In this document: positions 646-48,795 of the stretch, piece after piece
Position numbering within the stretch: position 1 is the stretch's first letter
How the letters are laid out: each line of letters opens with the position of its first letter
DNA from: a virus
Length of the DNA stretch: 48,795 nt
Virus record (IMG/VR): IMGVR_UViG_3300034069_000147
Coordinates: 1 to 48,795 of that record
Reading direction: 5' to 3' (one strand)
Notes under the pieces: generated by a model
Databases searched by the model: none
What the model saw: the letters and a program-made list of their open reading frames with translations, nothing else
Told to the model about the DNA's origin: nothing
Made by a program: the position numbers and the translations under genes

Positions 646-814
646 CGAAGCTTATCAGGCGCCGGGCGCGCCGCCCCGGATCGTCGGATATATGACGACG
701 CGCATTCTTCATACGGAGCGCGAAGCCTTGCTCGATGACGGCGAGGGAATGACGATCGGCAACATGGTCGACCGGCAAATCGACAGGATCATGAAAGACC
801 CGTTCGAAGGCTAA
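626..814 (+). CDS. Hypothetical protein, 62 aa
   Basis: ORF 626..814 is preceded by GGAGGAAATTCGAT. Its stop overlaps the stop of the convergent primase gene. Confidence 0.55.
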   Translation: MAKATASEAYQAPGAPPRIVGYMTTRILHTEREALLDDGEGMTIGNMVDRQIDRIMKDPFEG

Positions 815-3189
815 GCTTCAGTCTCCGGCATGAAATGGGCCGCGTTCGCCACCACAAAGGCGCGCGGCCCTTTGCCGAATTGAGCTTGCATTTGTTGCTT
901 CGGCATTTCCCTTAAATCGTCGGCGTCGAGCAAGAGCTTTAGCGTGCGCTTCAGCGCCGCTGTAGGGCCTAGCTTGTCATGCTTGAAGCTCGCCAGATTG
1001 ATCGTGCGCCGGCTTATATGCCCTTCGGTTATCACGCCCATGCGGTGCATTTCCTCGCTACCGCCATATTTGACCATCTTCGCCCAAGGGCTGTGAATAT
1101 AGCTCGATATGATCGATACCACGTCGGTTAGTTGTTTGTTCTCCGAACCTTCCAAGTGGCCGACTAAGCCGGTTTCGAACTTGGCAATGAGACGTTCGGT
1201 TTGACCGACAACGATATCGACGGCCCAACGAAATTCATTCATCGTGATAAGCGGGGAATGAAGGTTGATGCCCACAGCACAGACGGCGGCGAGCTTCAGC
1301 GCCTTTAGGTGCGCGCGGTTCCACAAGTGCCGGATATTTTCGGTATTGGCTTCGTTGATTTGATCCGTTGTCCAATACTCGAATTCGCGGAAAGCCTTCG
1401 TGGCCTCCGCGTCCATAGGAACATCGTGGATATTGCCATTGTGGGCAAGCGTAAGAGCCGTGCCGCATAGATCGCCAACCTTTTGAATAAGGTCGATCGA
1501 GGGCCGCACAGCCGCCGCGTTCTCATTCAGATATAGCCGCTTGCCGGTATATTCGAACATTAGGAAGCGCGGGATCAAGCCCGAAGATATCATGTTTTCG
1601 TCGAGCATGGCATAGAAGCGTTCGGGAACGCTTTCGCCGATTAACGTCAATGATGGCGACAGGATCGGATTGGTATTCTTTTCTTTGTCGCTGTAGGCGA
1701 TGGGATCGAACACGTTGCCGCGTCCGCTCTTGCTGTATAGCTGCAATAGGACGCGCTCTAGGCCGGCGACGTGCGCGTTGGCGTATGGGCTGGCCATTTC
1801 CTTCAGCTTGACGCCGAATTCGCCTAGTAGCGACAGCACAGCCGGTTTGCGGTCAAGCCATTTGATTAGGCCAGCCGAGCTAACAAGTTCGCCGGGGCCA
1901 CGGAAGTCGCCAGCCGCCGGAACATTCTTCGCGACTTCGCCCATAAGCCGGCCGATGCCGGTATGGATCGCGTCTTTGCCGTCTCCCGTCTTGGCGAGAT
2001 ATAGCATATATTGATTTAGTCCCTGCCCGGAGACGTTGAACGCGCGTCCACATATCGCCGACATAAGCGCGATCGAGCCCGCCAAGCCGGCGTCGGCTAC
2101 CGGCCGGGGCGAGGCGTCCAAGAGGAATTGCGCGATCTGCCCTAGCAGCCCCGGAGGAAACGGGTTGACGGCCCCGGTGATCGAGGGCACGCCATCGTCA
2201 GCCCTACAGCGCGGCTCCGGCCCGGTTGGGTTAGGGGCGGCGGCGGTTCCGCCCGGTTCAGCCGTCGCCCCGTTAGCAGCCGCCCTAGACGCCATGATAG
2301 CGTTGAATACGTTGTCGAGATTGACCGGCGGCAACTGCCGATCGAACGACTTGCGTATCATATAGCCAAGATAATCGTCGCGCTGTGCCTTGTCCCGTTG
2401 GCCAAGTGCGCTTTGACGAAAGATGCGGGCTATCTGTGCGCTATTTTGGGTATAGAACGCGATGATATCGACAAGGGCAAAGTCGGCTTCGGATTGGCTG
2501 CTATACTGCCCCGACCAATTGCCGTTATAGAGCGTGTTGAACTTGTCGCCGTTCATTGCTGACAAAGCAATGCCGACGATATCTTCGTCTGACTTCTCTT
2601 GCGGCTTCTCGGCAAACGAAAAATCTTCGTTTTTCTCGCCGCCCATTTCTTCAAACAAGATATCGAGCTTGTCTTGCCGCTCCGCAATCGGTGCCGGCCA
2701 ATGGACGTTGCCCGTCATCGTGGCATAGCGTTCGGACGTATAGACTTCGATATCAGCCCGGCGCCTACCGTGGGGAAGCTTGCCTTTGATGATGATATGA
2801 AGGCCGGTGCCCGATGGGCTTAATTCGCTATAACTGTTAAATTCGCCGAACACTTTCATTTGCACGGCGAACGCTTCGGCGTCGCCATGCGTGTCGTCTA
2901 GATCGATGAAGCCATAAGGATCGTCATCGGTAAAGACGAAGCCAATGCCGCTGAAGCCGGTTTGAGCTACAGGCAAAAGCGGATCGCAAGGTTCTTTGCA
3001 AGTGAACGGAGCGCGGATCGCATCGGCGTAAGAGCCCCACGTCGCCCTATCGGTAACGCTGGCCTTCGTTCCGCCGGGACGCGGAGCATAGGGAACTTTC
3101 GTTGGCTTCGCGCCTTCGCGCAATTCCAAACGCCAGACAACCCATTGATCTAGTTCCCGCAATTCAGCGGGAATATTGCCAAAATTCAT
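811..3189 (-). CDS. Bifunctional primase-polymerase (prim-pol) fused to a D5/DUF3987-like NTPase (replicative primase/helicase)
   Basis: Long ORF. N-terminal prim-pol motifs are FIDLDDTH (DxD) and SPSGTGLHIII. The C-terminal half carries a Walker-A-like AKTGDGKD. ATG 3189 overlaps the stop of the upstream HTH gene (ATGA); the ORF track extends to 3219. Confidence 0.85.
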   Translation of the reverse strand: MNFGNIPAELRELDQWVVWRLELREGAKPTKVPYAPRPGGTKASVTDRATWGSYADAIRAPFTCKEPCDPLLPVAQTGFSGIGFVFTDDDPYGFIDLDDTHGDAEAFAVQMKVFGEFNSYSELSPSGTGLHIIIKGKLPHGRRRADIEVYTSERYATMTGNVHWPAPIAERQDKLDILFEEMGGEKNEDFSFAEKPQEKSDEDIVGIALSAMNGDKFNTLYNGNWSGQYSSQSEADFALVDIIAFYTQNSAQIARIFRQSALGQRDKAQRDDYLGYMIRKSFDRQLPPVNLDNVFNAIMASRAAANGATAEPGGTAAAPNPTGPEPRCRADDGVPSITGAVNPFPPGLLGQIAQFLLDASPRPVADAGLAGSIALMSAICGRAFNVSGQGLNQYMLYLAKTGDGKDAIHTGIGRLMGEVAKNVPAAGDFRGPGELVSSAGLIKWLDRKPAVLSLLGEFGVKLKEMASPYANAHVAGLERVLLQLYSKSGRGNVFDPIAYSDKEKNTNPILSPSLTLIGESVPERFYAMLDENMISSGLIPRFLMFEYTGKRLYLNENAAAVRPSIDLIQKVGDLCGTALTLAHNGNIHDVPMDAEATKAFREFEYWTTDQINEANTENIRHLWNRAHLKALKLAAVCAVGINLHSPLITMNEFRWAVDIVVGQTERLIAKFETGLVGHLEGSENKQLTDVVSIISSYIHSPWAKMVKYGGSEEMHRMGVITEGHISRRTINLASFKHDKLGPTAALKRTLKLLLDADDLREMPKQQMQAQFGKGPRAFVVANAAHFMPETEA

Positions 3190-3383
3190 AGCTCCACAGT
3201 CTTGCCCGAAAGAACGCAATATAGACGCTCAATTTTATTGACGCCGGGCTCTTTGATTTGACCGTTGCACAACGCGCGAAGCCATGCCGGCGTCACGTCG
3301 ATTTCTTTTGCGATACGCGGCCATTCCTTCGACGCCGTCATATCGAGCAACACTAAAGTTGCCCTTAAAAGTTCGGAAGTCAT
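3186..3383 (-). CDS. Cro/CI-type helix-turn-helix transcriptional regulator, 65 aa
   Basis: Product is MTSELLRATLVLLDMTASKEWPRIAKEIDVTPAWLRALCNGQ...; it is small and HTH-like. It is the first gene of a divergent pair and is translationally coupled to the primase. Confidence 0.6.
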   Translation of the reverse strand: MTSELLRATLVLLDMTASKEWPRIAKEIDVTPAWLRALCNGQIKEPGVNKIERLYCVLSGKTVEL

Positions 3384-5671: not shown

Positions 5672-5937
5672 TGGCCGAAGAACAACTCGAATTGGATTGC
5701 TACCACAAGGCGGAGGAAGGCGAGGCCAAGTTCACGCTACTGGCGCGCGATCCGACCGGGCCGTCAATGGTCCGACTGTGGGCTGCAATTCGCGAGGCGG
5801 ATTATAAGCAAGCCGTTGTCGAATTCTCCAATCTCGTTACGGTCGCCGAACGCCACTATGAAGGCGATCCGACGAACGAAACGAAGATCGCTTCCGCCCT
5901 TACCATCGCCGAAAAAATGGAGCGGTGGGCGCAATAA
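5671..5937 (+). CDS. Hypothetical protein, 88 aa
   Basis: TAATG coupling at both ends. Product is MAEEQLELDCYHKAEEGEAKFTLLARDP... Confidence 0.6.
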   Translation: MAEEQLELDCYHKAEEGEAKFTLLARDPTGPSMVRLWAAIREADYKQAVVEFSNLVTVAERHYEGDPTNETKIASALTIAEKMERWAQ

Positions 5938-6902
5938 TGCGTGGATGCGGGACAGTCTTTAAGGGGCTATCCCCACAGCAACGGGAGACGTTGAAGCAAA
6001 TCGAAGGGTTAGCGGCCCGGCTGCGGCGACAAGCCGAAGCTCTTGACTATGCGGTGGCATCCTGTCTTCGTAACGAAACAACGGAAGGATTAGACGAAAT
6101 GGTCGCAATGTCGTTCAACGCGCAACAGCATACGCCGTCATATGGCGGTGGTGGCGGGTTGCCCGCCGGCCCCAACGGGGAGCCGGTGAGATACAAGGTT
6201 ATGATCGTCGACAGTCACGGCGAAAATACGAAGGATAACTTCGGCAACGTGAAGGGCGGCTATCTGGCGCTCGAACTCGCGTCGATCGAGGGTCCGACCC
6301 AAGGCACGCGCCAGACGGACCGGCTCAATCTTCACCACACGAACCCGAAGGTCGTCGAAATCGCCAACAAGCAATTGTCGGCGTATTGCCACGTTCTCGG
6401 CCGGTTCCAATTCAACGATACGGCGGAGCTTCACAATATTCCGTTTATCGTCGAAATCGGGCTTCAGAAGGCGCCCAACGAAAACGGCTATACCGAAGTG
6501 AAGGGCATCTTCGATATCAACGGCAACGAGCCCGGCAAAGCCGGCGGCGGCGCGGGCGGCCCTCCGGCTGGCGCGGCTCCGCCTCCCCCGGCTGGCCAGC
6601 CCCCGGCCGGTGGCGTCGCGCCCGCTGGCAACGGTTGGGGCGGCCCGCCTCCCGGTGCCGGCCCCGGCGCTCCGGCGGCCAATTCGCAGCCGCCCGCGCA
6701 CGGTGGCGGTTGGGGCGGGCCTCCCGCTGGCGGGCCGCCTGCGGGCGCTCCGGGCGGCGCTCCGCCGGCTGGCGGTGGATGGGGCGGGCCTCCGGCCGGT
6801 GGCCCTCCGGCGGGCGCTCCGTCGGCCGGTGGCGCGGGTTGGGGAGGCCCCCCGGCGGGTGGGCCTCCGGCCGGTGGTGCCGGATGGGGCGCGCCTTCCT
6901 GA
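5937..6902 (+). CDS. DUF669-like single-stranded-DNA-binding protein with a Gly/Pro/Trp-rich repetitive tail
   Basis: The core (MSFNAQQ...YKVMIVDS...NLHHTNPKVVEIANKQL) resembles phage DUF669 SSBs. The C-terminal ~120 aa are GWGGPPAGGPPAG-type repeats. The start is uncertain: 5937 is TAATG-coupled, 6099 follows GGAAGGA, and 6108 is a third option. Confidence 0.6.
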   Translation: MRGCGTVFKGLSPQQRETLKQIEGLAARLRRQAEALDYAVASCLRNETTEGLDEMVAMSFNAQQHTPSYGGGGGLPAGPNGEPVRYKVMIVDSHGENTKDNFGNVKGGYLALELASIEGPTQGTRQTDRLNLHHTNPKVVEIANKQLSAYCHVLGRFQFNDTAELHNIPFIVEIGLQKAPNENGYTEVKGIFDINGNEPGKAGGGAGGPPAGAAPPPPAGQPPAGGVAPAGNGWGGPPPGAGPGAPAANSQPPAHGGGWGGPPAGGPPAGAPGGAPPAGGGWGGPPAGGPPAGAPSAGGAGWGGPPAGGPPAGGAGWGAPS

Positions 6903-9745: not shown

Positions 9746-9956
9746 TCGAACCGCTCTTGTCGAAATGCTTAAACAAGCTGTATCTGGCGCCGTTATTGGC
9801 ATTATGAATGAAGAAAAACCAACGCCATCTTGTATTAGTTGTGTTCACTTCATAGAGCAACAAGAGACTTGCCGGCTATATAACGGCCGCCCTCCCGCTC
9901 GCGTGATCGCTTATGGATGCGAAAGCTACAACGACGTTTTAGAAGTGCCTTATTGA
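9729..9956 (+). CDS. Small Cys-containing hypothetical protein, 75 aa
   Basis: The ORF overlaps the helicase 3' end, and its stop is TGATG-coupled to the next ORF. Confidence 0.5.
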   Translation: MAMNSNRTALVEMLKQAVSGAVIGIMNEEKPTPSCISCVHFIEQQETCRLYNGRPPARVIAYGCESYNDVLEVPY

Positions 9957-11281
9957 TGCTAAGTCCGTGTCGCCTTTGCGATCAATGGCGGTGCGTCCTA
10001 GGCGATCGGAAGAAGGATTGCTTGGCGGGCTTTCCGAACCTTCGTCGAATAGGCAATCAACCCGGCGGTTTCGAAGCGGCTAACGAAGACCCGGCCAACT
10101 GGCAAATAGCTGAACGGCTCTATTACGAAAGGATGACGACAATGGCGGCAGGCAAGGGACGCGGACGGCCGGCGAAGCCGACGCAAGCGCAACAGCTTAT
10201 CGAAGCCCTCGACTTCATCGCCGTGGGCACGCGAGACGATGAAGACTATCAGGAATATATCGTCATGAAGGGCGGCTATGCGACGGCCTTCAATGGCCAG
10301 ATTGCGGCCGGTCATCCGATCGCGGAGGAATTGACAGTTTGCCCACAGTTGAAGCGGCTACGCGCGGCGCTGGCGAAGTCGGGCAAGTCGCTTGTCATAA
10401 GTGAGACCCCGAACGGGCAACTTTCGATCAAGGGCGATAAGCCCCGGTTCGTGGTGCCGTGCCGCAAGCTCGACGAACAACCGCAAGTCGAACCGAACCC
10501 GAAGCTCGCACCGCTGGCGGAGACAATCAAAGACGCTTTCAACGTCTGTGGATCGCTCGCCACCGAAGCCGGCGAACGTGTCATCGAAGCTTCGCTTCTT
10601 TTGGAAGCGAACACTTGCACCGGCACGAACGGCGTGGCGTTGCTGCAATACTGGCACGGGATCGACCTTCCGCCGGCCATCATCTTGCCTAAGATTTTCA
10701 CAGCCGCGATTGTGAAGGCCGGCAAGCCAATCGACGGGTTCGGCTTCGAATGGAAGCAAGGCAAAGAGCCCGGCGAATGGATCGTCGGAACCTTCACCAT
10801 TTGGTTCGAAGGCGGCGCGTGGATACGCACGCAATGCTATCAGGATCGTTGGCCCGACGTGTCGCGTATCTTGAACGTGCCGAGCAACGCCACCCCGATC
10901 CCGGAAGGCTTGTTCGAAGCAATCGATACCGTTCACGGCTTCGACGACAGCGATCGTGTCATTTTGTCAAACGATCGCGTTATGTCGCACGAAAGCGAAG
11001 ACGTTGGCGCTGTCTATCCCGTGCCGGGCTTGAAGTGCCACTTGGGCTTCAACGGTAAGTTCATGAAGAAAGTCGCGCCTTACGCCAAGACGATCGACCT
11101 TAACAAGAGCGAAGGCGAGGCGGTTCTATTCTTCGGCGGCACCGATGAAAACCCGGTGCGAGGCGCAATTATGGGGCTGAAGATATCGCCTTCCGATCCG
11201 GCCCCGACGCCAGCGCCCAACCCGGAGCCCGAACCGTCCGACGCTGAAATTAGCGAAGGTTGGGGGCAAGCCGATGCCTAA
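9956..11281 (+). CDS. Putative sliding-clamp (DnaN beta-clamp-like) protein; start uncertain (9956 or 10142)
   Basis: Weak by-eye resemblance to DnaN: YQDRWPDVSRILN vs the clamp F/YPDY..VIP segment, HLGFNGKFMKKV vs IGFNxxYL, and C-terminal AVLFFGG...RGAIMGL. ATG 10142 follows AAGGA; ATG 9956 is stop-coupled. Confidence 0.45.
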   Translation: MLSPCRLCDQWRCVLGDRKKDCLAGFPNLRRIGNQPGGFEAANEDPANWQIAERLYYERMTTMAAGKGRGRPAKPTQAQQLIEALDFIAVGTRDDEDYQEYIVMKGGYATAFNGQIAAGHPIAEELTVCPQLKRLRAALAKSGKSLVISETPNGQLSIKGDKPRFVVPCRKLDEQPQVEPNPKLAPLAETIKDAFNVCGSLATEAGERVIEASLLLEANTCTGTNGVALLQYWHGIDLPPAIILPKIFTAAIVKAGKPIDGFGFEWKQGKEPGEWIVGTFTIWFEGGAWIRTQCYQDRWPDVSRILNVPSNATPIPEGLFEAIDTVHGFDDSDRVILSNDRVMSHESEDVGAVYPVPGLKCHLGFNGKFMKKVAPYAKTIDLNKSEGEAVLFFGGTDENPVRGAIMGLKISPSDPAPTPAPNPEPEPSDAEISEGWGQADA

Positions 11282-39011: not shown

Positions 39012-39223
39012 GCTCGCGGGCCTCGCTCGCGCATTACTTCGGTAAGCGTTTCGAGCGTGTTGGTATTTTGTTCGATTGCCTTTATGCTTTCTCGGCTTTC
39101 GGCAATTCGTTTCTCTTGTATCTCATTTACTTTTTTGTATAGAGCGACAAGAGCGACGCCTAAAGCAACGATTATAACGCCTAGAACGCCTTGGCCTAAG
39201 AAATACTTAGTAACTTCGTCCAT
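39008..39223 (-). CDS. Single-pass membrane protein with a coiled-coil tail, 71 aa (i-spanin-like or holin-regulator candidate)
   Basis: The TM helix is GVLGVIIVALGVALVALY, followed by a charged helix. It is TAATG-coupled to the endolysin. Confidence 0.55.
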   Translation of the reverse strand: MDEVTKYFLGQGVLGVIIVALGVALVALYKKVNEIQEKRIAESRESIKAIEQNTNTLETLTEVMRERGPRA

Positions 39224-39945
39224 TACGCCAGCTTTCCAAGCTGAAGCTTTATGGCCAAAGTATCGTTAAGCTTAGCAAGCTCAACAAGCTCCGCCGGAAG
39301 CATAACAGGAAAAACATCTTTGTTTTCGATCGGCGCGATTGCTTTTGGCAATTCGATCGGTGCCGGCATAACGAACATTTGATCCGCACGCGCGAGCTTT
39401 ATGGCGTAATCTATTACGCCGGTGTCGTCAACTTGGACACCATCTTTGTATCCCATAACGCGACGAACCCAACCTTTGCCGAAGTCGGGAAACGTGGCCA
39501 GCGATCGGAGAAACGCCACTCGATTGGCGCAATACTCGATAACAAACATTTCTTCGTCTTTACGTGTGGCCGCGAATACGGCTTCGATCGAGACGTTGCC
39601 AAGGCTACCGTCATCATCGACGCCAAGTTGGCGCTGAAGATAGCGAATTGCACGCGAGACGCCAGAATTAACCGCGAAGTCGAAGACAGCATAATCGATA
39701 CCGGCGGGCAGTTCATCGCCGCGAATGCGGCGCCAATATTGCGAGATATAAATATCTTTCGTTTCCATTGGATCGATTTGCCGAACGCTTCGGAGCGCCA
39801 GCCCGTGAAGCTTACGGTATGCGTCATATACCGCTTGCGTAACGCCGCAATTGGTAGCTCCGCCGGGATCGCGAGGATTGTTGACGAAGCCGCCTTCATG
39901 CGCCAAAACAAGCGCCAGCGATTGCTTAAAGCTAGTTGCACTCAT
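39223..39945 (-). CDS. Endolysin: GH108 lysozyme domain plus a PG_binding_3-type domain
   Basis: The signature is ALVLAHEGGFVNNPRDPGGATNCGVT, followed by LQRQLGVDDDGSLG. It is ATGA-coupled to the holin. Confidence 0.8.
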   Translation of the reverse strand: MSATSFKQSLALVLAHEGGFVNNPRDPGGATNCGVTQAVYDAYRKLHGLALRSVRQIDPMETKDIYISQYWRRIRGDELPAGIDYAVFDFAVNSGVSRAIRYLQRQLGVDDDGSLGNVSIEAVFAATRKDEEMFVIEYCANRVAFLRSLATFPDFGKGWVRRVMGYKDGVQVDDTGVIDYAIKLARADQMFVMPAPIELPKAIAPIENKDVFPVMLPAELVELAKLNDTLAIKLQLGKLA

Positions 39946-41087: not shown

Positions 41088-41885
41088 TTATGCGTGCCGT
41101 CCGCTTCCTTTTTCGTTTATGACGCTGGCAACATTCGGATCGTCGAGCTTCGCGATAAGCTCCGCCGACGAAATCGGATTAGGCCGCTGTGCCTCGATCG
41201 CGTTGCCGTCGAGATTGCGTTCGCCTTCCATCTTAGCCGTTCGATGGCCGATCGGAAGATGATGTTCCAGCAAGTCCCGTTCGGCGGCAAGCTGGCGATT
41301 GTTGGCGTCGTGTTCGGTGAAGCGATCCGGGAAGCGCATACGAAGCTTCGCGATGTTCGCCATTTCGTCATCGCCCCACTTGAAGCGACCGACGCGGGCG
41401 AGTAGCGCCATATACCACTTCGCATCGCCGACTTCTTCGCCGATGTTTGTTCGATCGAAGCCTTTGCCGCTGATAGCGTCGCGGAGATTTTCGAGCAATT
41501 CGCCCGCCTCCGTCGCCACGCCAATAACGCCGTGAATATAAAATTCGGCTTCCTCGTTGGTAAGATCCGAGTTATCTGTGATCCGGTTCGGCACGTTGGA
41601 CATATCGAGCGGTTTGCCGGGTTCGTCATACTGCCCCGGCGCGGCGCCATGATAGTCGCCAAGGCCGGCGTCTCGCCCATAGAACAGAGCTTTTTTGATC
41701 GCGTCCATACGCTGCAAAGCGTCGATCGCATCATTCAAAGCCCGAACGAACCGGAACTTCGCCACAAGCTCGCCATGATATTGTGACGAGACTGTCAGAA
41801 AGGCTTCAGCCGCATAGTCGAAAGCCGGTTGCATAAGGCGAGTGCCATCGGCCATAACGCCAGAGCGGAATTCGTCGTCAGTCAT
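41088..41885 (-). CDS. mazG: MazG-like nucleoside triphosphate pyrophosphohydrolase with N- and C-terminal extensions
   Basis: The core is HGVIGVATEAGELLENL ... GEEVGDAKWYMALLA (the ExxE ... ExxD metal-binding pattern). Confidence 0.7.
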   Translation of the reverse strand: MTDDEFRSGVMADGTRLMQPAFDYAAEAFLTVSSQYHGELVAKFRFVRALNDAIDALQRMDAIKKALFYGRDAGLGDYHGAAPGQYDEPGKPLDMSNVPNRITDNSDLTNEEAEFYIHGVIGVATEAGELLENLRDAISGKGFDRTNIGEEVGDAKWYMALLARVGRFKWGDDEMANIAKLRMRFPDRFTEHDANNRQLAAERDLLEHHLPIGHRTAKMEGERNLDGNAIEAQRPNPISSAELIAKLDDPNVASVINEKGSGRHA

Positions 41886-41905: not shown

Positions 41906-41979
41906 TGGATGCCCCGGAAGGGATCGAACCTTCATTCGCGGAACCAAAAACCGTTGTCCTACCATTAGACGACGGGGCA
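41906..41979 (-). tRNA. tRNA-Gln (anticodon UUG) with encoded CCA
   Basis: Hand-folded cloverleaf. The acceptor is UGCCCCG/CGGGGCA, the D arm is GUCU/GGAC with A14, G18, G19 and A21, and the T arm is GAAGG-UUCGAUC-CCUUC. The anticodon loop is UUUUGGU and the 3' end is UCCA. Confidence 0.75.
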
Positions 41980-42349: not shown

Positions 42350-42568
42350 TTAGTTGTTCTCCGCGTTGCGCTGGCGCTCCAAGGCTTCGACATAAAGCCT
42401 AGTGACAACGCAACGATCCTGCGAACGGTTGACGTTAGACGGGTGATCGAGGGCGCACCGCTCGCGAATGCCTTCAGGCGAGTGCGGATCGCCACCATAT
42501 TTGTTCGCCACGAACAAAATGGAGAAAACGCCGATGGCCGCCAGCGCCAGCTTGTTCTTCGTCTTCAT
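42350..42568 (-). CDS. Signal-anchor/secreted small protein, 72 aa
   Basis: ATGA-coupled to the VRR-NUC stop. Product is MKTKNKLALAAIGVFSILFVANK... Confidence 0.55.
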   Translation of the reverse strand: MKTKNKLALAAIGVFSILFVANKYGGDPHSPEGIRERCALDHPSNVNRSQDRCVVTRLYVEALERQRNAENN

Positions 42569-43134
42569 GTCGCCTTCCCCAAATAGCGGAGGATTGCGTC
42601 TCGCGCCGCTTCCCATCCGACACACACTTCGACGGCATAGCCGGCATGGCGCAAGTAGGCAATCCATTCGTCTTGCACGTCAGACGTGCCGCCAGCGGAG
42701 CCGCGCGCCGACTTTTGGCGTTTTAGCTCAATAAACAGGCCAGCCGCAAACTTCGTTTCGACGAAAGGTTCTGTGGTCCAAGGCATATAGCCGGAAACCT
42801 TTTCAGACACGATAACCGGCAACATGATATCCGGCACGCCAGCCTTCACGCCTTCCGCCTTCGACATAGCGCCGCGCACAGCGTCACCATGGCCAGCATT
42901 TTTTATAGCAAATAGCCGGCGAAGCTCCGGGATCGGATCGCTTGACTTAACATAGCCGAGCTTGCCCCGGTTATCGAATTGCGTCTTGGCAAAGCCGGGC
43001 GTTGTGTAGCTGTGCGGATCTTTGGCAAGGATCGGACCGAACATGGCCGCCATGTTTGCCCACATGAACAGCGCGACTTGCTCAGCATATTCGTTGCGCG
43101 TCTTGCCGGCGTAGCTCCACGGATCGAGCGCCAT
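42565..43134 (-). CDS. VRR-NUC domain nuclease
   Basis: Motifs are GVPDIMLPV ... GLFIELKR ... QDEWIAYLRHAGYAVEVCVGWEAA. Confidence 0.7.
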   Translation of the reverse strand: MALDPWSYAGKTRNEYAEQVALFMWANMAAMFGPILAKDPHSYTTPGFAKTQFDNRGKLGYVKSSDPIPELRRLFAIKNAGHGDAVRGAMSKAEGVKAGVPDIMLPVIVSEKVSGYMPWTTEPFVETKFAAGLFIELKRQKSARGSAGGTSDVQDEWIAYLRHAGYAVEVCVGWEAARDAILRYLGKAT

Positions 43135-43138
43135 TGCT

Positions 43139-43474
43139 TCAGTCTCCCAACGAAAAGCGCGGGTCGATCGCCTTTAGCGTCGCCAGATAGGCGTCGCGCT
43201 CTTGCTCCCATGTCACAACGAGCGAACCGAAGTATTCGGCCGACGTTATGAGACGCTTTGCCAGCAACAGACGCGCCAACGCCGAAGCCTCGATCAACGC
43301 GCTATTCACGCCGACGCGCAAATGCTTAGGCTCACATTCGGGAAATCGCTTTCCGCTACTGGCGGCGTGTTGCTGAAGAAACGCCACAGCCGATTGCACT
43401 TGATGCGTCAGCTTTGCGAGCTTGGCCGCAACTTCAGGCGCCGGAACGGGCGAATATGCATCATCGTTTGCCAT
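43139..43474 (-). CDS. Hypothetical protein, 111 aa
   Basis: ORF is TAATG-coupled to the upstream gene. Confidence 0.6.
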   Translation of the reverse strand: MANDDAYSPVPAPEVAAKLAKLTHQVQSAVAFLQQHAASSGKRFPECEPKHLRVGVNSALIEASALARLLLAKRLITSAEYFGSLVVTWEQERDAYLATLKAIDPRFSLGD

Positions 43475-43719
43475 TAGAATTGCTCCAAAAAGTTTTGAAT
43501 GCCAACCGGCAATTCATCGGGCCGTTCGTCGGGCACTTCAGCCTTGCGAGCGCCGATGCTGACAAGCCATGCGTGCGTGCGCGCATTGAAGGCGTCAAGA
43601 TAGCTGTCAGGAATTTTGTTGCCGCCATAGTGGGGCAACGCCTTACGCGCCGCTAGCTCCGCCTCGCGGGCTCGATCGCGCTCCGCCCATTCGGCGAAGA
43701 TTGGCCAGCCGTCAGCCAT
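43474..43719 (-). CDS. Hypothetical protein, 81 aa
   Basis: ORF follows a structured 150-nt intergenic region. Confidence 0.55.
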   Translation of the reverse strand: MADGWPIFAEWAERDRAREAELAARKALPHYGGNKIPDSYLDAFNARTHAWLVSIGARKAEVPDERPDELPVGIQNFLEQF

Positions 43720-43754
43720 TACGGATTGCTTCGCTGAAAGAAAGCCATAGTCTT

Positions 43755-43848
43755 ACGACAACTAAGACAATCAACTTTCGCCGTGCTTTTAGTTGTCGTT
43801 ATCTGTGCGCTCGACCAACGTTAGCCGGCTCCACAAGCCGGACGTTGG
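43755..43848 (-). other. Two strong hairpins in an intergenic region (regulatory RNA structure, processing site or non-canonical terminator)
   Basis: An 11-bp perfect inverted repeat ACGACAACTAA/TTAGTTGTCGT spans 43755-43799. CCAACGT(tag)CCGGC-loop-GCCGGACGTTGG spans 43815-43848. Confidence 0.4.
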
Positions 43849-43869
43849 CCAATCGTTGCAAGATGAACC

Positions 43870-44097
43870 TTAGCCATAGCTAGACCATCCTTCGACAAGG
43901 CGCCAATCGGCCGCTTGATCGGCCGGGCTGTGCTGGAATTCATAGCTCGCGCCAGCACCTTCGAACACAATCATAAGGCGCGGAGCATCCCAACCATGCG
44001 CTTCCGCCTTCAGCACCGATCCGCGCGACAGGCTATCGGACGTGACGCGCTCGCCAGCGGCCACTAGCTCTAGGGCTTCGTCGAGCGTCATGGCCAA
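43870..44097 (-). CDS. DUF2829-like small protein (same family as the anti-Thoeris sponge Tad2), 75 aa
   Basis: The N-terminus MTLDEALELVAAGERVTSDS and C-terminus SPADQAADWRLVE fit the DUF2829 pattern (F..A...l..G.kv.r ... DW.iv) as I remember it. No search was run. Confidence 0.4.
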   Translation of the reverse strand: MAMTLDEALELVAAGERVTSDSLSRGSVLKAEAHGWDAPRLMIVFEGAGASYEFQHSPADQAADWRLVEGWSSYG

Positions 44098-44453
44098 AAC
44101 TCGAAACGAGCCGCCATTTCTGCAATTTTATCTGTGGGAACATTGTGAACACTACCGTAATTGCCTTGGCAAATCACAATAGAGTAAGGAAAGCCGAGAT
44201 TGACATATGGCAGCAATTCCCATCGCCTAGTAAAAGTATTGCTGACAACAACGTCTTTGCCGGCGTTTAGCGAAGCTCTCGCGCTCTCAAGACACCAATC
44301 ATGGCATTCCTGAAGCTTATCGGGCATGAAGCTATAACGCCCGGCATCGTCGATCATAAGCATATCAGCTTCGAAATGATCGCGGCCAAGGCTTTTAGCG
44401 AGTGTCGTCTTGCCCGAACCCGGCAAGCCGCGAATTAGCAGCAAATGCGCCAT
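44088..44453 (-). CDS. P-loop kinase resembling the kinase domain of polynucleotide kinase (AAA_33-like), 121 aa
   Basis: Motifs are LIRGLPGSGKTTLA, VVVSNTFTRRWE (cf. T4 Pnk VIISDTNL..ERR) and SVHNVPTDKIAEMAARFE. There is no phosphatase domain. Confidence 0.55.
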   Translation of the reverse strand: MAHLLLIRGLPGSGKTTLAKSLGRDHFEADMLMIDDAGRYSFMPDKLQECHDWCLESARASLNAGKDVVVSNTFTRRWELLPYVNLGFPYSIVICQGNYGSVHNVPTDKIAEMAARFEFWP

Positions 44454-44497
44454 GTTGCCCGTTCCTTTGATAGTAGGCGATAGAAGCCGGCCTTAGA

Positions 44498-44950
44498 TCA
44501 GCCTAGCTTCAGAATGTCAACCCCTCCGCCGGAGAAAACATCGAACTTGCACGCGATGGCCACAGCCCCGGCCGCGCTCGCGCCAGCCTCCATAGCGCCA
44601 AGGGCATAGCCGGAGCCCGAACCAACCGCCATGAATTCGACTTCAACGATCGTGGGCATGTAGCTATCTTGGAAGTAAAGCACTTGACCGGACGGCTCAA
44701 CGTATAGGATTTCGAAATCCATTTCGCGTTCACTATTCTTGATAACCGGCCAATTGTCGTGATCCATGCCGGCTTCGATCCACGGGATAAGCCGCACAGA
44801 CGCGCCGACGATCGAAGATGACACACCGATAAGCGAGCCATTATCGAGCCGCTTTATCTTGCTTTTGCGCGCGTGCATGGCTTCGCCACGGCCAAGATAG
44901 GCTTGCCGATCAGCCGCCATGTAGCCGTCACGGAATGCGATAGTCGTCAT
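44498..44950 (-). CDS. HslV / proteasome-beta-like N-terminal-nucleophile hydrolase, 150 aa
   Basis: MTTIAFRDG... has the Thr nucleophile directly after Met. KSKIKRL corresponds to the HslV K33 region, and MAVGSGSGYALGA corresponds to HslV AIGSGGPYA. Confidence 0.6.
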   Translation of the reverse strand: MTTIAFRDGYMAADRQAYLGRGEAMHARKSKIKRLDNGSLIGVSSSIVGASVRLIPWIEAGMDHDNWPVIKNSEREMDFEILYVEPSGQVLYFQDSYMPTIVEVEFMAVGSGSGYALGAMEAGASAAGAVAIACKFDVFSGGGVDILKLG

Positions 44951-45080
44951 TTGTGTTGCCTTGGTGGTGGCACTCTTACCGGAGGAACCTTACAACGATA
45001 AGTGTTGCGCGCGAAAAAGTGCGGTTGAAGTTGGCAAGTAGGCAAAGACAACGCCAGCCCCATTGCCACGCAAAGCCGGA

Positions 45081-45269
45081 TCATTTGCTTGCTGCCTTTT
45101 CCTCTAAAATGCGAGCTTCGATAGCGACTAGCGACGCTTCGGCAAACTCAAGCCATTTGTTTTGCGTGGCGCGTTTCATTTGACTAGGCGGAGTGCCGGC
45201 GCGCTTAGCCATAGCCAAAGCCATATCTTCAATCAAAGATTGACGAAGACTGTTGCCATACTTAGGCAT
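45081..45269 (-). CDS. Hypothetical protein, 62 aa
   Basis: ATG 45269 (MPKYGNSLRQS...) overlaps the stop of the upstream 57-aa ORF by 8 nt. The track ORF over-extends to 45353. Confidence 0.5.
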   Translation of the reverse strand: MPKYGNSLRQSLIEDMALAMAKRAGTPPSQMKRATQNKWLEFAEASLVAIEARILEEKAASK

Positions 45270-45435
45270 TGGCTTTGATCCACGCTTCAGCTTCGGCTTT
45301 GCTGTCAAATAGCAGCGGCAAGCCGTCGTCGGCTCGCATAAGAATGTCGCCAAGCCGGACGGTAAACTTATCTGGCGTTATCTCGCCGCCGTCCGTCACG
45401 CGATAGCTTGAAGCCTTCAAATTTGCATCGGTCAC
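45262..45435 (-). CDS. Hypothetical protein, 57 aa (GTG start; not in the ORF track)
   Basis: Product is VTDANLKASSYRVTDGGEITPDKFTVRLGDILMRADDGLPLLFDSKAEAEAWIKANA. It is preceded by GGAGCAAGG and stop-start coupled to the next gene. It competes with the track ORF 45368..45562. Confidence 0.35.
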   Translation of the reverse strand: MTDANLKASSYRVTDGGEITPDKFTVRLGDILMRADDGLPLLFDSKAEAEAWIKANA

Positions 45436-46329: not shown

Positions 46330-47001
46330 TCAAGCCGGCTTTAGCGGATACGGCGGCGCATCGCAAGGCCGAACGATCGTCCGCCACTTATCCGAAGGAT
46401 CGCCGAAAAGCTGAAGCTGTGCATCATATACAATGCCAAGGTGGCGCTTGCGCGCATACCATATCGCGGCTTGCACTTGATTGGCGATCATGCCGGCTGA
46501 AGCGGCCAACTCGCGCACGTCGGCTGCGATGGCTTCATATTGGCGCCGGCCTCGAATGATGGCTTCTTTCATCGTCAGACGCTCGGCAAGCCATGCCGCG
46601 TGAATATGGCCGTCGACTGTCACCGGCATAGGGTCAACAGGATCGACGATATTCAGAAAGAATGATCGTATCTTAGGCCCCTTCACCGTGGCGAGGAAAT
46701 CAACGTCACCATTGACATAGCCAAGTGCCCGAAGCTTGCAATGATTATACGTCGAGACTGTGACGCGCTCGGCTGGCGCATCCCGGTAGCACAGCACCGA
46801 AGCCAACGAGCGAAGGTTGCCGAAATAGTCGCTATTCGGTGACAACGCCACAAAGGCGGCCACAACGCGGCCAAGCTCCACGCCATAGCATTCGGCAAAG
46901 TCGGCCATGACAGCATTGTAACGCCGATATGCGAGCCGGCCTTCCGCTACGTCGTCGGCGTCGGCTCGATCGAGCATGGCGGCTAGGTTGGATATCGTCA
47001 C
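46330..47001 (-). CDS. Hypothetical protein, 223 aa (first gene of the minus-strand arm)
   Basis: Clean ORF next to the AT-rich control region. I recognise no motif with confidence. Confidence 0.65.
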   Translation of the reverse strand: MTISNLAAMLDRADADDVAEGRLAYRRYNAVMADFAECYGVELGRVVAAFVALSPNSDYFGNLRSLASVLCYRDAPAERVTVSTYNHCKLRALGYVNGDVDFLATVKGPKIRSFFLNIVDPVDPMPVTVDGHIHAAWLAERLTMKEAIIRGRRQYEAIAADVRELAASAGMIANQVQAAIWYARKRHLGIVYDAQLQLFGDPSDKWRTIVRPCDAPPYPLKPA

Positions 47002-48336: not shown

Positions 48337-48795
48337 ATGAACGCTATTGACAAAGTGCGGCATATTCAGGCGATCATGGCCATGTCGGCCGCCGAAGCCA
48401 TATGCTATCAGACGTGGAGCGACGACTATTGCCGCGATAACATTCGTGGCGCCGTCGACCGCATTCTTCACCATACCGGATGCCCGAAGAATTATCCCGA
48501 TGCGGAACCGGCGATTGGCCGCGTCGACGTGACGGAGCTTTCCGACGACGAATGCGCCATTCTCGGCTTCAACAAGTGGACGGACGAACCGGGCGATAAG
48601 CTCGCCGGGCTGCGGTTGATCCCGCTCTATCTTTATCCGTTCCTCGCTTACGGGCAGAAACTTACGTCGATCATGGGCGAGACGAAGAAGGTTCGCCCAG
48701 GCTATGACGTGCGCGTCGACATGAAGGATGACGAAACGCACGTCGAGTTTCGAACCCGGTTGGCAATTTCGCCGTATATCGATGCCGATCATCGC
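48337..48795 (+). CDS. 5' part of the wrap-around hypothetical protein gene (continues at 1..312 after removing the 141-bp duplicate)
   Basis: ATG 48337 follows GAAGGAAACCAAC. The frame is open to the window end, and residues from 48655 onward repeat those encoded at 1-141. Confidence 0.7.
   Translation, partial: MNAIDKVRHIQAIMAMSAAEAICYQTWSDDYCRDNIRGAVDRILHHTGCPKNYPDAEPAIGRVDVTELSDDECAILGFNKWTDEPGDKLAGLRLIPLYLYPFLAYGQKLTSIMGETKKVRPGYDVRVDMKDDETHVEFRTRLAISPYIDADHR
48655..48795. repeat. Terminal direct repeat, identical to 1-141
   Basis: Base-by-base identity with the first 141 bases. Confidence 0.95.

Follow-up and report, generated by a model that had tools for sequence, protein, structure and literature searches.

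The locus examined here raises the question of whether three tightly packed phage genes form a functional unit or are neighbors that are acquired and lost separately. The genes lie on the minus strand of the IMG/VR virus record IMGVR_UViG_3300034069_000147, positions 1 to 48,795; this whole stretch of 48,795 nucleotides is called the window below. They encode a 150-amino-acid (aa) proteasome homologue of the PPH type (44498..44950), a 121-aa P-loop kinase resembling polynucleotide kinase (PNK) (44088..44453) and a divergent 73-aa protein of the Tad2/DUF2829 fold (43870..44091). A first interpretation made from the letters of the DNA alone (hereafter the original prediction) had described the trio as an island for counter-defense or host takeover, and the tightly packed minus-strand open reading frames (ORFs) with the motifs quoted for them are present. 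We consider it likely, however, that the locus consists of three independent accessory genes, a PPH, a small PNK-like kinase and a divergent Tad2-fold protein, and not of a conserved unit.

The occurrence of the three families in other phages carries this reading. We collected 84 PPH loci, which are those of 98 retrieved loci that flank a PPH gene, with up to 6 kb on each side. The kinase was found in none of the 84 (0/84) by tblastn and with family hidden Markov models (HMMs). The 73-aa family was found near PPH only in the four loci of the closest relatives (L001, L002, L003 and L005). In these relatives the Tad2-like protein is longer (143-155 aa) and is encoded about 1.2 kb upstream of PPH (2640-3107 in L001, 2818-3249 in L002 and from about 4614 in L005); its N-terminal half is similar to the 73-aa family (E 1e-5 to 1e-6) and is followed by a C-terminal extension. 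The gene for a VRR-NUC nuclease, which served as a synteny anchor, stands directly after PPH or one gene later in the closest relatives, and in the window it is separated from PPH by four genes (kinase, Tad2-like, orf81 and orf111). Homologues of orf81 (81 aa, 43474-43719, minus strand) that are 52-55% identical to it are encoded immediately upstream of PPH in L001 (3822-4004) and L005 (about 5858-6001), which points to local rearrangement around PPH. In another locus (L089), a kinase gene (65% identical) and a Tad2-like gene (41%) are 3.5 kb apart; the latter directly precedes VRR-NUC, MazG, DUF7303 and endolysin genes, and no PPH was found within the 8.2 kb retrieved. A conserved three-gene module was rejected, since the genes do not co-occur. 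The scattered occurrence in relatives indicates that this is a variable accessory region, with replication genes on one side and lysis and packaging genes on the other, in which the genes of the trio come and go separately. The island of the original prediction is not upheld by these results.

The 150-aa protein was assigned from its ORF, a PHROG match, a family profile, an AlphaFold2 model and Foldseek searches. It begins MTTIAF and contains SKIKRL (with K31) and GSGSGYA (residues 110-116). Because the ATG at 44950 is the first start codon past the upstream in-frame stop, the protein has no propeptide. It matched phrog_1040 ('peptidase HslV family') over its full length (E 7e-35), while matches to Pfam Proteasome and to the NCBIfam HslV and proteasome models were far below threshold and a PDB search with the single sequence gave marginal matches only. 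A search of 5.8 billion proteins returned 112 homologues, which are 135-218 aa long. The alignment of 100 PPH homologues has M1, D14, G110 and G112 as invariant positions, T2, T3, K31 and D137 as positions conserved in at least 90%, and S111 and S140 as majority residues. In the PDB, the family profile matched chains of BPH, HslV and proteasome beta5 (E 5e-11 to 1e-8), and T2, D14, K31, G110-S111-G112, D137 and S140 aligned with T1, D17, K33, G128-S129-G130, D166 and S169 of beta5i.

The AlphaFold2 model of this protein (pLDDT 95.5, pTM 0.90) has helix H1 at residues 50-59, followed by a loop (60-78) and then strands; H3 (113-121) and H4 (126-136) are present, H2 is absent, and the model stops after the last core strand with no C-terminal S12/H5 extension. 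E. coli HslV has an insertion at the H2 site in the profile alignment with PPH. In Foldseek, the best PDB matches were BPH and HslV, and the probability was 1.00 to BPH, HslV and 20S beta subunits. By model and alignment, the 150-aa protein is with confidence an N-terminal nucleophile (Ntn) hydrolase of the proteasome-beta/HslV fold in which the catalytic set is predicted to be intact, as had been proposed earlier from the motifs, and Thr2 is the predicted nucleophile after removal of Met. At least 293 relatives are present in IMG/VR, and homologues are carried by phages of Rhizobium, Sinorhizobium and Vibrio.

The PPH family was introduced in 2021 as the first proteasome homologue of truly viral nature, defined as phage-borne proteins of about 140 aa without a propeptide, H2 or the C-terminal S12/H5, with BPH as the nearest relative (PMC8665760). 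Among proteasome homologues, H2 is missing only in PPH and RPC (PMC8665760). Judged by its sequence and predicted structure, the 150-aa protein is a member of this already known family, whose function is uncharacterized: it shares the size, the fold, the Thr1/Asp/Lys triad, the lack of propeptide, H2 and S12/H5, the carriage by a tailed phage and BPH as the closest of the solved structures. No defining difference was found, and the protein falls in a sub-branch with Ser in place of the second Gly of G-x-x-G (residues 42-45). Since the family lacks a known function, membership in it gives no mechanism. The literature was searched for experimental or functional studies of PPH or phage HslV-like proteins and yielded annotations only; phage genome papers annotate HslV-like genes and remark on the missing HslU. 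The original prediction was aware of no characterized function for an HslV-like protease in phages; the family itself had already been described, as PPH (PMC8665760) and in PHROGs.

BPH (PDB 5OVS/5OVU), which belongs to group I of the proteasome homologues and has no known unfoldase, is the best match to PPH in both profile and fold. It differs in being about 200 aa long, in having H2 and a long acidic pore loop, and in forming double heptameric rings, whereas the PPH model has 150 residues and no H2. By analogy, Met1 of PPH would be removed by the host methionine aminopeptidase, and the freed Thr would attack peptide bonds as in HslV and the proteasome. The enzyme would need no ATPase dedicated to it, as has been suggested for BPH, and its substrates would be unfolded or exposed.

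HslV (ClpQ) shares with PPH the MTTI N-terminus, the catalytic residues and the fold (Foldseek TM-score 0.64-0.75, query-normalized). On the other hand, PPH is about 25 residues shorter, in agreement with the original prediction, lacks H2 and has a short H1 of 10 residues, so that the full H1/H2 helix pair of HslV is not present. Its scores against the HslV equivalog models are more than 120 bits under the NCBIfam cut-offs (15.9 bits against 157.75 for TIGR03692, 16.3 against 137 for NF003964). E. coli HslU as query matched no ORF of the window or of the 98 retrieved loci at E <= 0.01, so PPH has no hslU partner in its genome or beside its homologues, and the absence of an HslU-like ATPase from the window had been noted correctly. 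True HslV identity was rejected, as the equivalog scores, the H1/H2 pair and the hslU partner all fail.

The second gene of the trio encodes a small stand-alone P-loop kinase (AAA_33, PNK-like), identified with Pfam, PHROG and a family profile. Its ORF contains the motifs GLPGSGKT (P-loop, G9-T16) and VVVSNTFTRR. The match to Pfam AAA_33 (E 5.9e-12) scored 46.5 bits against a gathering threshold of 27; phrog_2071 ('ATPase') was matched at E 4e-24 and phrog_505 ('polynucleotide kinase') at E 2.5e-6. The family comprises more than 4,380 homologues of about 120-135 aa, with 612 cultured phage records, and among 45 homologues the P-loop, E28, D30, H51, C54, N72-T73-F74, W78-E79 and H103 are invariant. 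Against the PDB, the family profile matched Pnkp1, mammalian PNKP, the kinase domain of C. thermocellum Pnkp and T4 Pnk (E 1e-3 to 2e-2). These PNK chains were the only PDB matches to reach past the P-loop, and all were weak; with single sequences, both the kinase and the 73-aa protein gave P-loop-only or chance matches. In the alignment to Pnkp1, D30 stands opposite the second Asp of RDD and is thereby a putative catalytic residue; we take it to be the equivalent of T4 Pnk D35, the catalytic Asp that activates the 5'-OH. The PNK 5'-kinase domains (T4 Pnk, Clostridium thermocellum Pnkp, Pnkp1 and PNKP) have the P-loop, an Asp after strand 2 and S-N/D-T in the same order as the window kinase. 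They differ from it in that the window kinase has no phosphatase domain, and its PDB matches to them are weak. The kinase would phosphorylate a 5'-OH, most likely on a nucleic-acid end. A literature search for functional work on the small kinase gave annotations only.

The gene neighborhoods of the kinase family suggest a context for this activity. In six of seven sampled cultured phages, the homologue was encoded downstream of an Rnl1-type RNA ligase, at most one gene away. These six phages (ECP26, PHB09, REC1, PAK_P1, Bennett and K54_rec1) belong to different genera; cultured-phage homologues are 31-41% identical to the window kinase, and in the six phages the gene is mostly annotated as 'ATPase' or 'hypothetical'. 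Three of them (REC1, PAK_P1 and K54_rec1) also have a gene annotated as a phosphoesterase some 2 kb upstream, and genes for PRPP-synthetase-like, Nampt (NAD-salvage) or Sir2 proteins often stand beside the kinase homologues. Where the phosphoesterase is present, the arrangement of kinase and ligase resembles by analogy a split version of the RNA-repair pathway of T4 Pnk and Rnl1. In the window, tblastn with RNA ligases (six phage queries) and phosphoesterases (three) gave no match at E <= 0.1, so that the earlier description of a PNK-like kinase without a phosphatase or ligase partner holds. Four metagenomic kinase homologues were located among small genes between replication and packaging modules and had no common neighbor. 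The GC content of the window kinase gene is 48.9%, with 49% at third codon positions (GC3), while its neighbors have a GC content of 56-61% and a GC3 of 62-66%; the GC3 of TerL is also low (55%). The low GC content suggests recent horizontal acquisition, and the kinase is probably a recently acquired, PNK-like orphan with neither a phosphoesterase nor a ligase partner.

The third gene was identified from a gene call, homologue clusters, an AlphaFold2 model and Foldseek. The ORF at 43870-44097 (TTG start, 75 aa) named in the original prediction exists; the public gene call, however, has exactly the 73-aa product from the ATG at 44091, and this ATG, which overlaps the stop of the kinase gene as ATGA, is most likely the true start. 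An exhaustive search found 20 clusters of homologues, down to E 1e-14, and a word-indexed search found one; no match was obtained in cultured phages. The family conserves A6, G13, G24, K28, F52, W63, G68 and W69, the last within a C-terminal E-G-W69. The Pfam Tad2-like profile was matched over its full length at E 0.02, with 15.8 bits against a threshold of 25, and two of 20 family members match it at E <= 1; the family profile found no Tad2 chain in the PDB. The AlphaFold2 model (pLDDT 88.5) has a helix, five strands and a short alpha3 before the last strand, which is the published order of Tad2. The top three PDB matches in Foldseek were SPO1 Tad2 (TM-score 0.71-0.76, E 0.02), with the next match at E 1, and at least 11 of the top 30 matches in BFVD are named Tad2-like or DUF2829.

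The likeness to Tad2 did not extend to the ligand pocket. SPO1 Tad2 contacts glycocyclic ADP-ribose (gcADPR) via W25, N26, W73, S76, T78 and D79, and the motifs GWNG and W-x-x-S-x-T-D are invariant in the three solved homologues MoTad2, HgmTad2 and SptTad2. In a positional alignment based on secondary-structure order, the 73-aa family has S-L-[SP]-x-G in place of GWNG (W25, N26). By position, W-x-x-S-x-T-D corresponds to F52-Q-H-S55-P-A-D58; of this stretch, the other family members share only F52 and an acidic residue at position 57/58. The mapping of the C-terminal motif is uncertain, as hhalign of the family against the three Tad2 sequences gave a probability of 21% in a register that conflicts with the secondary-structure order. 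Compared with Tad2 (DUF2829, PF11195; SPO1 gp34.65, MoTad2 and HgmTad2), the family shares the small size, the alpha1/five-strand/alpha3 order and A-[DE]-D-W before the last strand; it differs in the absence of GWNG, the replacement of W73 by Phe, the extra invariant C-terminal E-G-W and the sub-threshold Pfam score. By model and alignment, the Tad2 assignment would stop at the fold, in a rare subfamily that appears not to keep the known ligand pocket. The proposed relation to DUF2829 and Tad2 is thus supported in fold (Foldseek to SPO1 Tad2) but not in profile score or motif. Tad2 homologues vary widely in ligand and inhibit Thoeris, CBASS and Pycsar systems (PMC12393519). Given the modeled fold, a sponge role for the 73-aa protein is plausible; it would be an oligomeric binder of a small nucleotide-like ligand, with a pocket unlike that of the characterized Tad2 proteins.

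Within the window, the three genes are closely spaced: a gap of 44 nt separates PPH from the kinase gene, which overlaps the Tad2-like gene by 4 nt. A consensus scan placed a terminator-like hairpin at 45054..45079 (minus strand), roughly 100 nt upstream of where PPH begins, and a transcription unit of the three genes may have its 5' boundary there. The hairpin is only a match to the pattern, and shuffled versions of the scanned region contain more of these sites than the region itself. Two strong hairpins followed by a U-rich stretch (43755..43852, minus strand; -55.7 kcal/mol, z-score -3.2 against shuffles) lie in the 150-nt gap after the Tad2-like gene and were not called by the simple terminator scan; these may form the 3' end of the unit as a terminator or a processing site. 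No promoter was found around the trio by a scan for the sigma-70 type. A 45-aa ORF (44947-45084, minus strand) has an ATGA overlap with the PPH start and spans the terminator-like hairpin; this ORF probably does not represent a gene.

The surroundings of PPH genes elsewhere were also surveyed. Flanking ORFs were clustered for 63 loci (62 PPH loci and the window), with 22 GC-rich loci left out. This gave no partner gene that is conserved beside PPH: the largest cluster of neighbors other than PPH itself was present at 5 of these 63 loci. In a PHROG scan of the nearest same-strand neighbors at 72 loci, TerL (at least 5), portal (4), major capsid protein (MCP, 3) and head-morphogenesis proteins were found; the head-tail adaptor Ad1 was encoded near PPH on the upstream side in 3 cases and on the downstream side in 6, and the other nearest neighbors were DNA polymerases, primases and endonuclease VII. 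PPH lies between an SU10-type portal gene and the MCP gene in L004 (4001-4459); in L015 and L029 (about 6001-6430) the order is portal, PPH, gp7-like protein and then MCP; and in Sinorhizobium phage phiM5 (2090-2611) it is TerL, PPH and portal. This spot inside the packaging and head module is the usual place of a head-maturation protease.

Several observations weigh against a reading as three independent genes with the activities assigned above. Given the tight packing and the flanking hairpins, the trio may be transcribed as a single unit in this phage. The PPH, kinase, Tad2-like, VRR-NUC and MazG families are kept in the same variable region by related phages, and this shared content is also compatible with a counter-defense hot spot. 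As for the kinase, lid arginines such as T4 Pnk R126 stabilize the transferred phosphate. The lid segment of the window kinase clade has no invariant Arg, and H103 is invariant there. The small kinases of Pakpunavirus, Otagovirus, Vequintavirus and Thalassavirus that adjoin RNA ligases share AAA_33 with it and contain ENRHGN, whose Arg is missing from the window clade; judging from these alignments, the substrate of the window kinase may differ from that of the ligase-adjacent homologues. It is nevertheless unlikely, in our estimate, that the trio is a co-functional cassette for counter-defense or host takeover, in which the protease removes host defense or regulatory proteins, the kinase repairs or modifies nucleic-acid ends or a signaling nucleotide, and the Tad2-like protein acts as a sponge for an immune signal. 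Such a cassette is suggested by the packing with its ATGA overlap, the hairpins on both sides, the variation of the region among related phages in the manner of anti-defense loci, the Tad2 fold of the third protein and the inhibition of Thoeris, CBASS and Pycsar by Tad2 homologues (PMC12393519). However, the kinase is missing from 84/84 PPH loci and differs in GC content from its neighbors, the Tad2-like gene accompanies PPH only in the closest relatives, where it is longer and in another position, in L089 a distance of 3.5 kb separates the kinase gene from the Tad2-like gene and the 8.2 kb retrieved contain no PPH, and the canonical Tad2 ligand motif is missing. We regard as rather improbable the bolder proposal that PPH would be a stand-alone, ATPase-independent threonine protease that removes specific host proteins, of defense or of regulation, within a hairpin-bounded counter-defense cassette, together with an orphan 5'-kinase and a Tad2-fold protein whose pocket is remodeled for an immune signal yet to be recognized. 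If true, it would give the viral proteasome homologue its first function and define a new specificity class of Tad2-like sponges.

The reading as independent genes leaves the action of PPH to be considered, and here three further explanations were weighed. PPH could dock to the host HslU (ClpY), replace or compete with the host HslV and so redirect ATP-dependent proteolysis, as the original prediction had suggested. The N-terminal MTTI as in E. coli HslV, the intact active site and the presence of HslV structures among the best fold matches would fit this. In HslV, H1 and H2 form the apical face that contacts HslU. Because H2 is lost, HslV-style docking is unlikely, and the short H1, the HslV equivalog scores far under the cut-offs, the best structural match to BPH, for which no unfoldase is known, and the presence of PPH in phages of many hosts with no linked AAA+ or HslU-like gene in the retrieved loci also argue against it; we hold the borrowing of the host HslU to be very unlikely. 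A morphogenetic role, in which PPH would be a protease acting on scaffold, capsid or virion proteins, a new class of head-maturation protease that in this phage works in trans from outside the head module, is doubtful and in our view rather unlikely. It draws on the location of PPH inside the packaging and head module in the unrelated L004, L015, L029 and phiM5 and on head and packaging genes being its commonest annotated immediate neighbors. In addition, the head-module ORFs of the window, scanned with the exclusion of a 236-aa ORF between the gp7-like and MCP genes, gave as the sole match to a head-maturation protease a weak secondary one for the gp7-like protein. In the window, however, PPH is some 7 kb upstream of the head genes and surrounded by genes for nucleases and nucleotide metabolism, and in many other phages it stands beside replication genes. 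The phiM5 record notes the portal and scaffold as 'detected in phage particle proteome' and gives no such note for the peptidase, and head modules often receive insertions of accessory genes. It is highly unlikely that PPH is a non-protease, namely a sequence-specific ligase/transpeptidase or an amidohydrolase like the monomeric proteasome homologue connectase. Connectase shows that ligase chemistry is possible in the proteasome fold and lacks H1 and H2 (PMC8665760), and H2 is lost in PPH too. PPH retains, on the other hand, H1, H3 and H4, through which the subunits of ring-forming homologues contact one another; it is free of the helical insertions lying over the active site of connectase, and its closest relatives are ring-forming proteases.

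The value of this analysis lies in sharper, testable assignments for three uncharacterized phage families and not in a new kind of system, and the result will not surprise a specialist. No viral proteasome homologue has a known function, and PPH has been listed in surveys and annotations since 2021. The PPH of the window is compact and confidently modeled, has a predicted intact active site and comes from a small complete genome, so that it is well suited to biochemistry; the survey of PPH contexts adds the leads that there is no conserved partner and that the gene is often inside head or packaging modules. The occurrence of kinase homologues beside RNA ligases suggests a split phage RNA-repair set and gives a testable role to an unnamed 'ATPase' family. 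The Tad2-like subfamily without GWNG could widen the known range of sponge proteins.

The remaining features of the window place the trio in its genome. An exact direct repeat of 141 bp is common to both ends (1-141 and 48655-48795), which indicates that the window is a complete genome, either circularly assembled or terminally redundant. It is of the siphovirus type and about 48.65 kb long. A search for DNA similarity of 43400-45400 to known phages found none, and the portal is at most 33% identical to that of any cultured phage. Replication genes occupy 4-14 kb on the plus strand, and the accessory block has a primase gene (811-3219, minus strand) directly upstream of it. A long minus-strand block extends from 48.8 kb to 14 kb; it begins with small accessory genes and continues with DUF7178 (46330-47001), the trio, VRR-NUC (42565..43134; Pfam VRR_NUC E 1.7e-5, phrog_824 E 5e-31), tRNA-Gln, MazG (41088-41885), DUF7303, endolysin (39223-39945), TerL and portal. 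After the portal follow the gp7-like head protein, MCP, minor tail proteins and a 2119-aa tape measure protein. The tRNA-Gln gene (anticodon UUG; 41906-41979, minus strand) is located between the MazG-like gene and the VRR-NUC block, and Rfam and ARAGORN gave nothing else in the window. The Walker-A ORFs of the window that correspond to genes are those of a Sak4-like protein, a phrog_947 protein, TerL and the 121-aa kinase. The phrog_947 protein is a 454-aa Walker A protein encoded at 9917-11281 on the plus strand, between the helicase and DNA polymerase genes; it matches no Pfam family and is assigned to phrog_947 as 'DNA polymerase processivity factor'.

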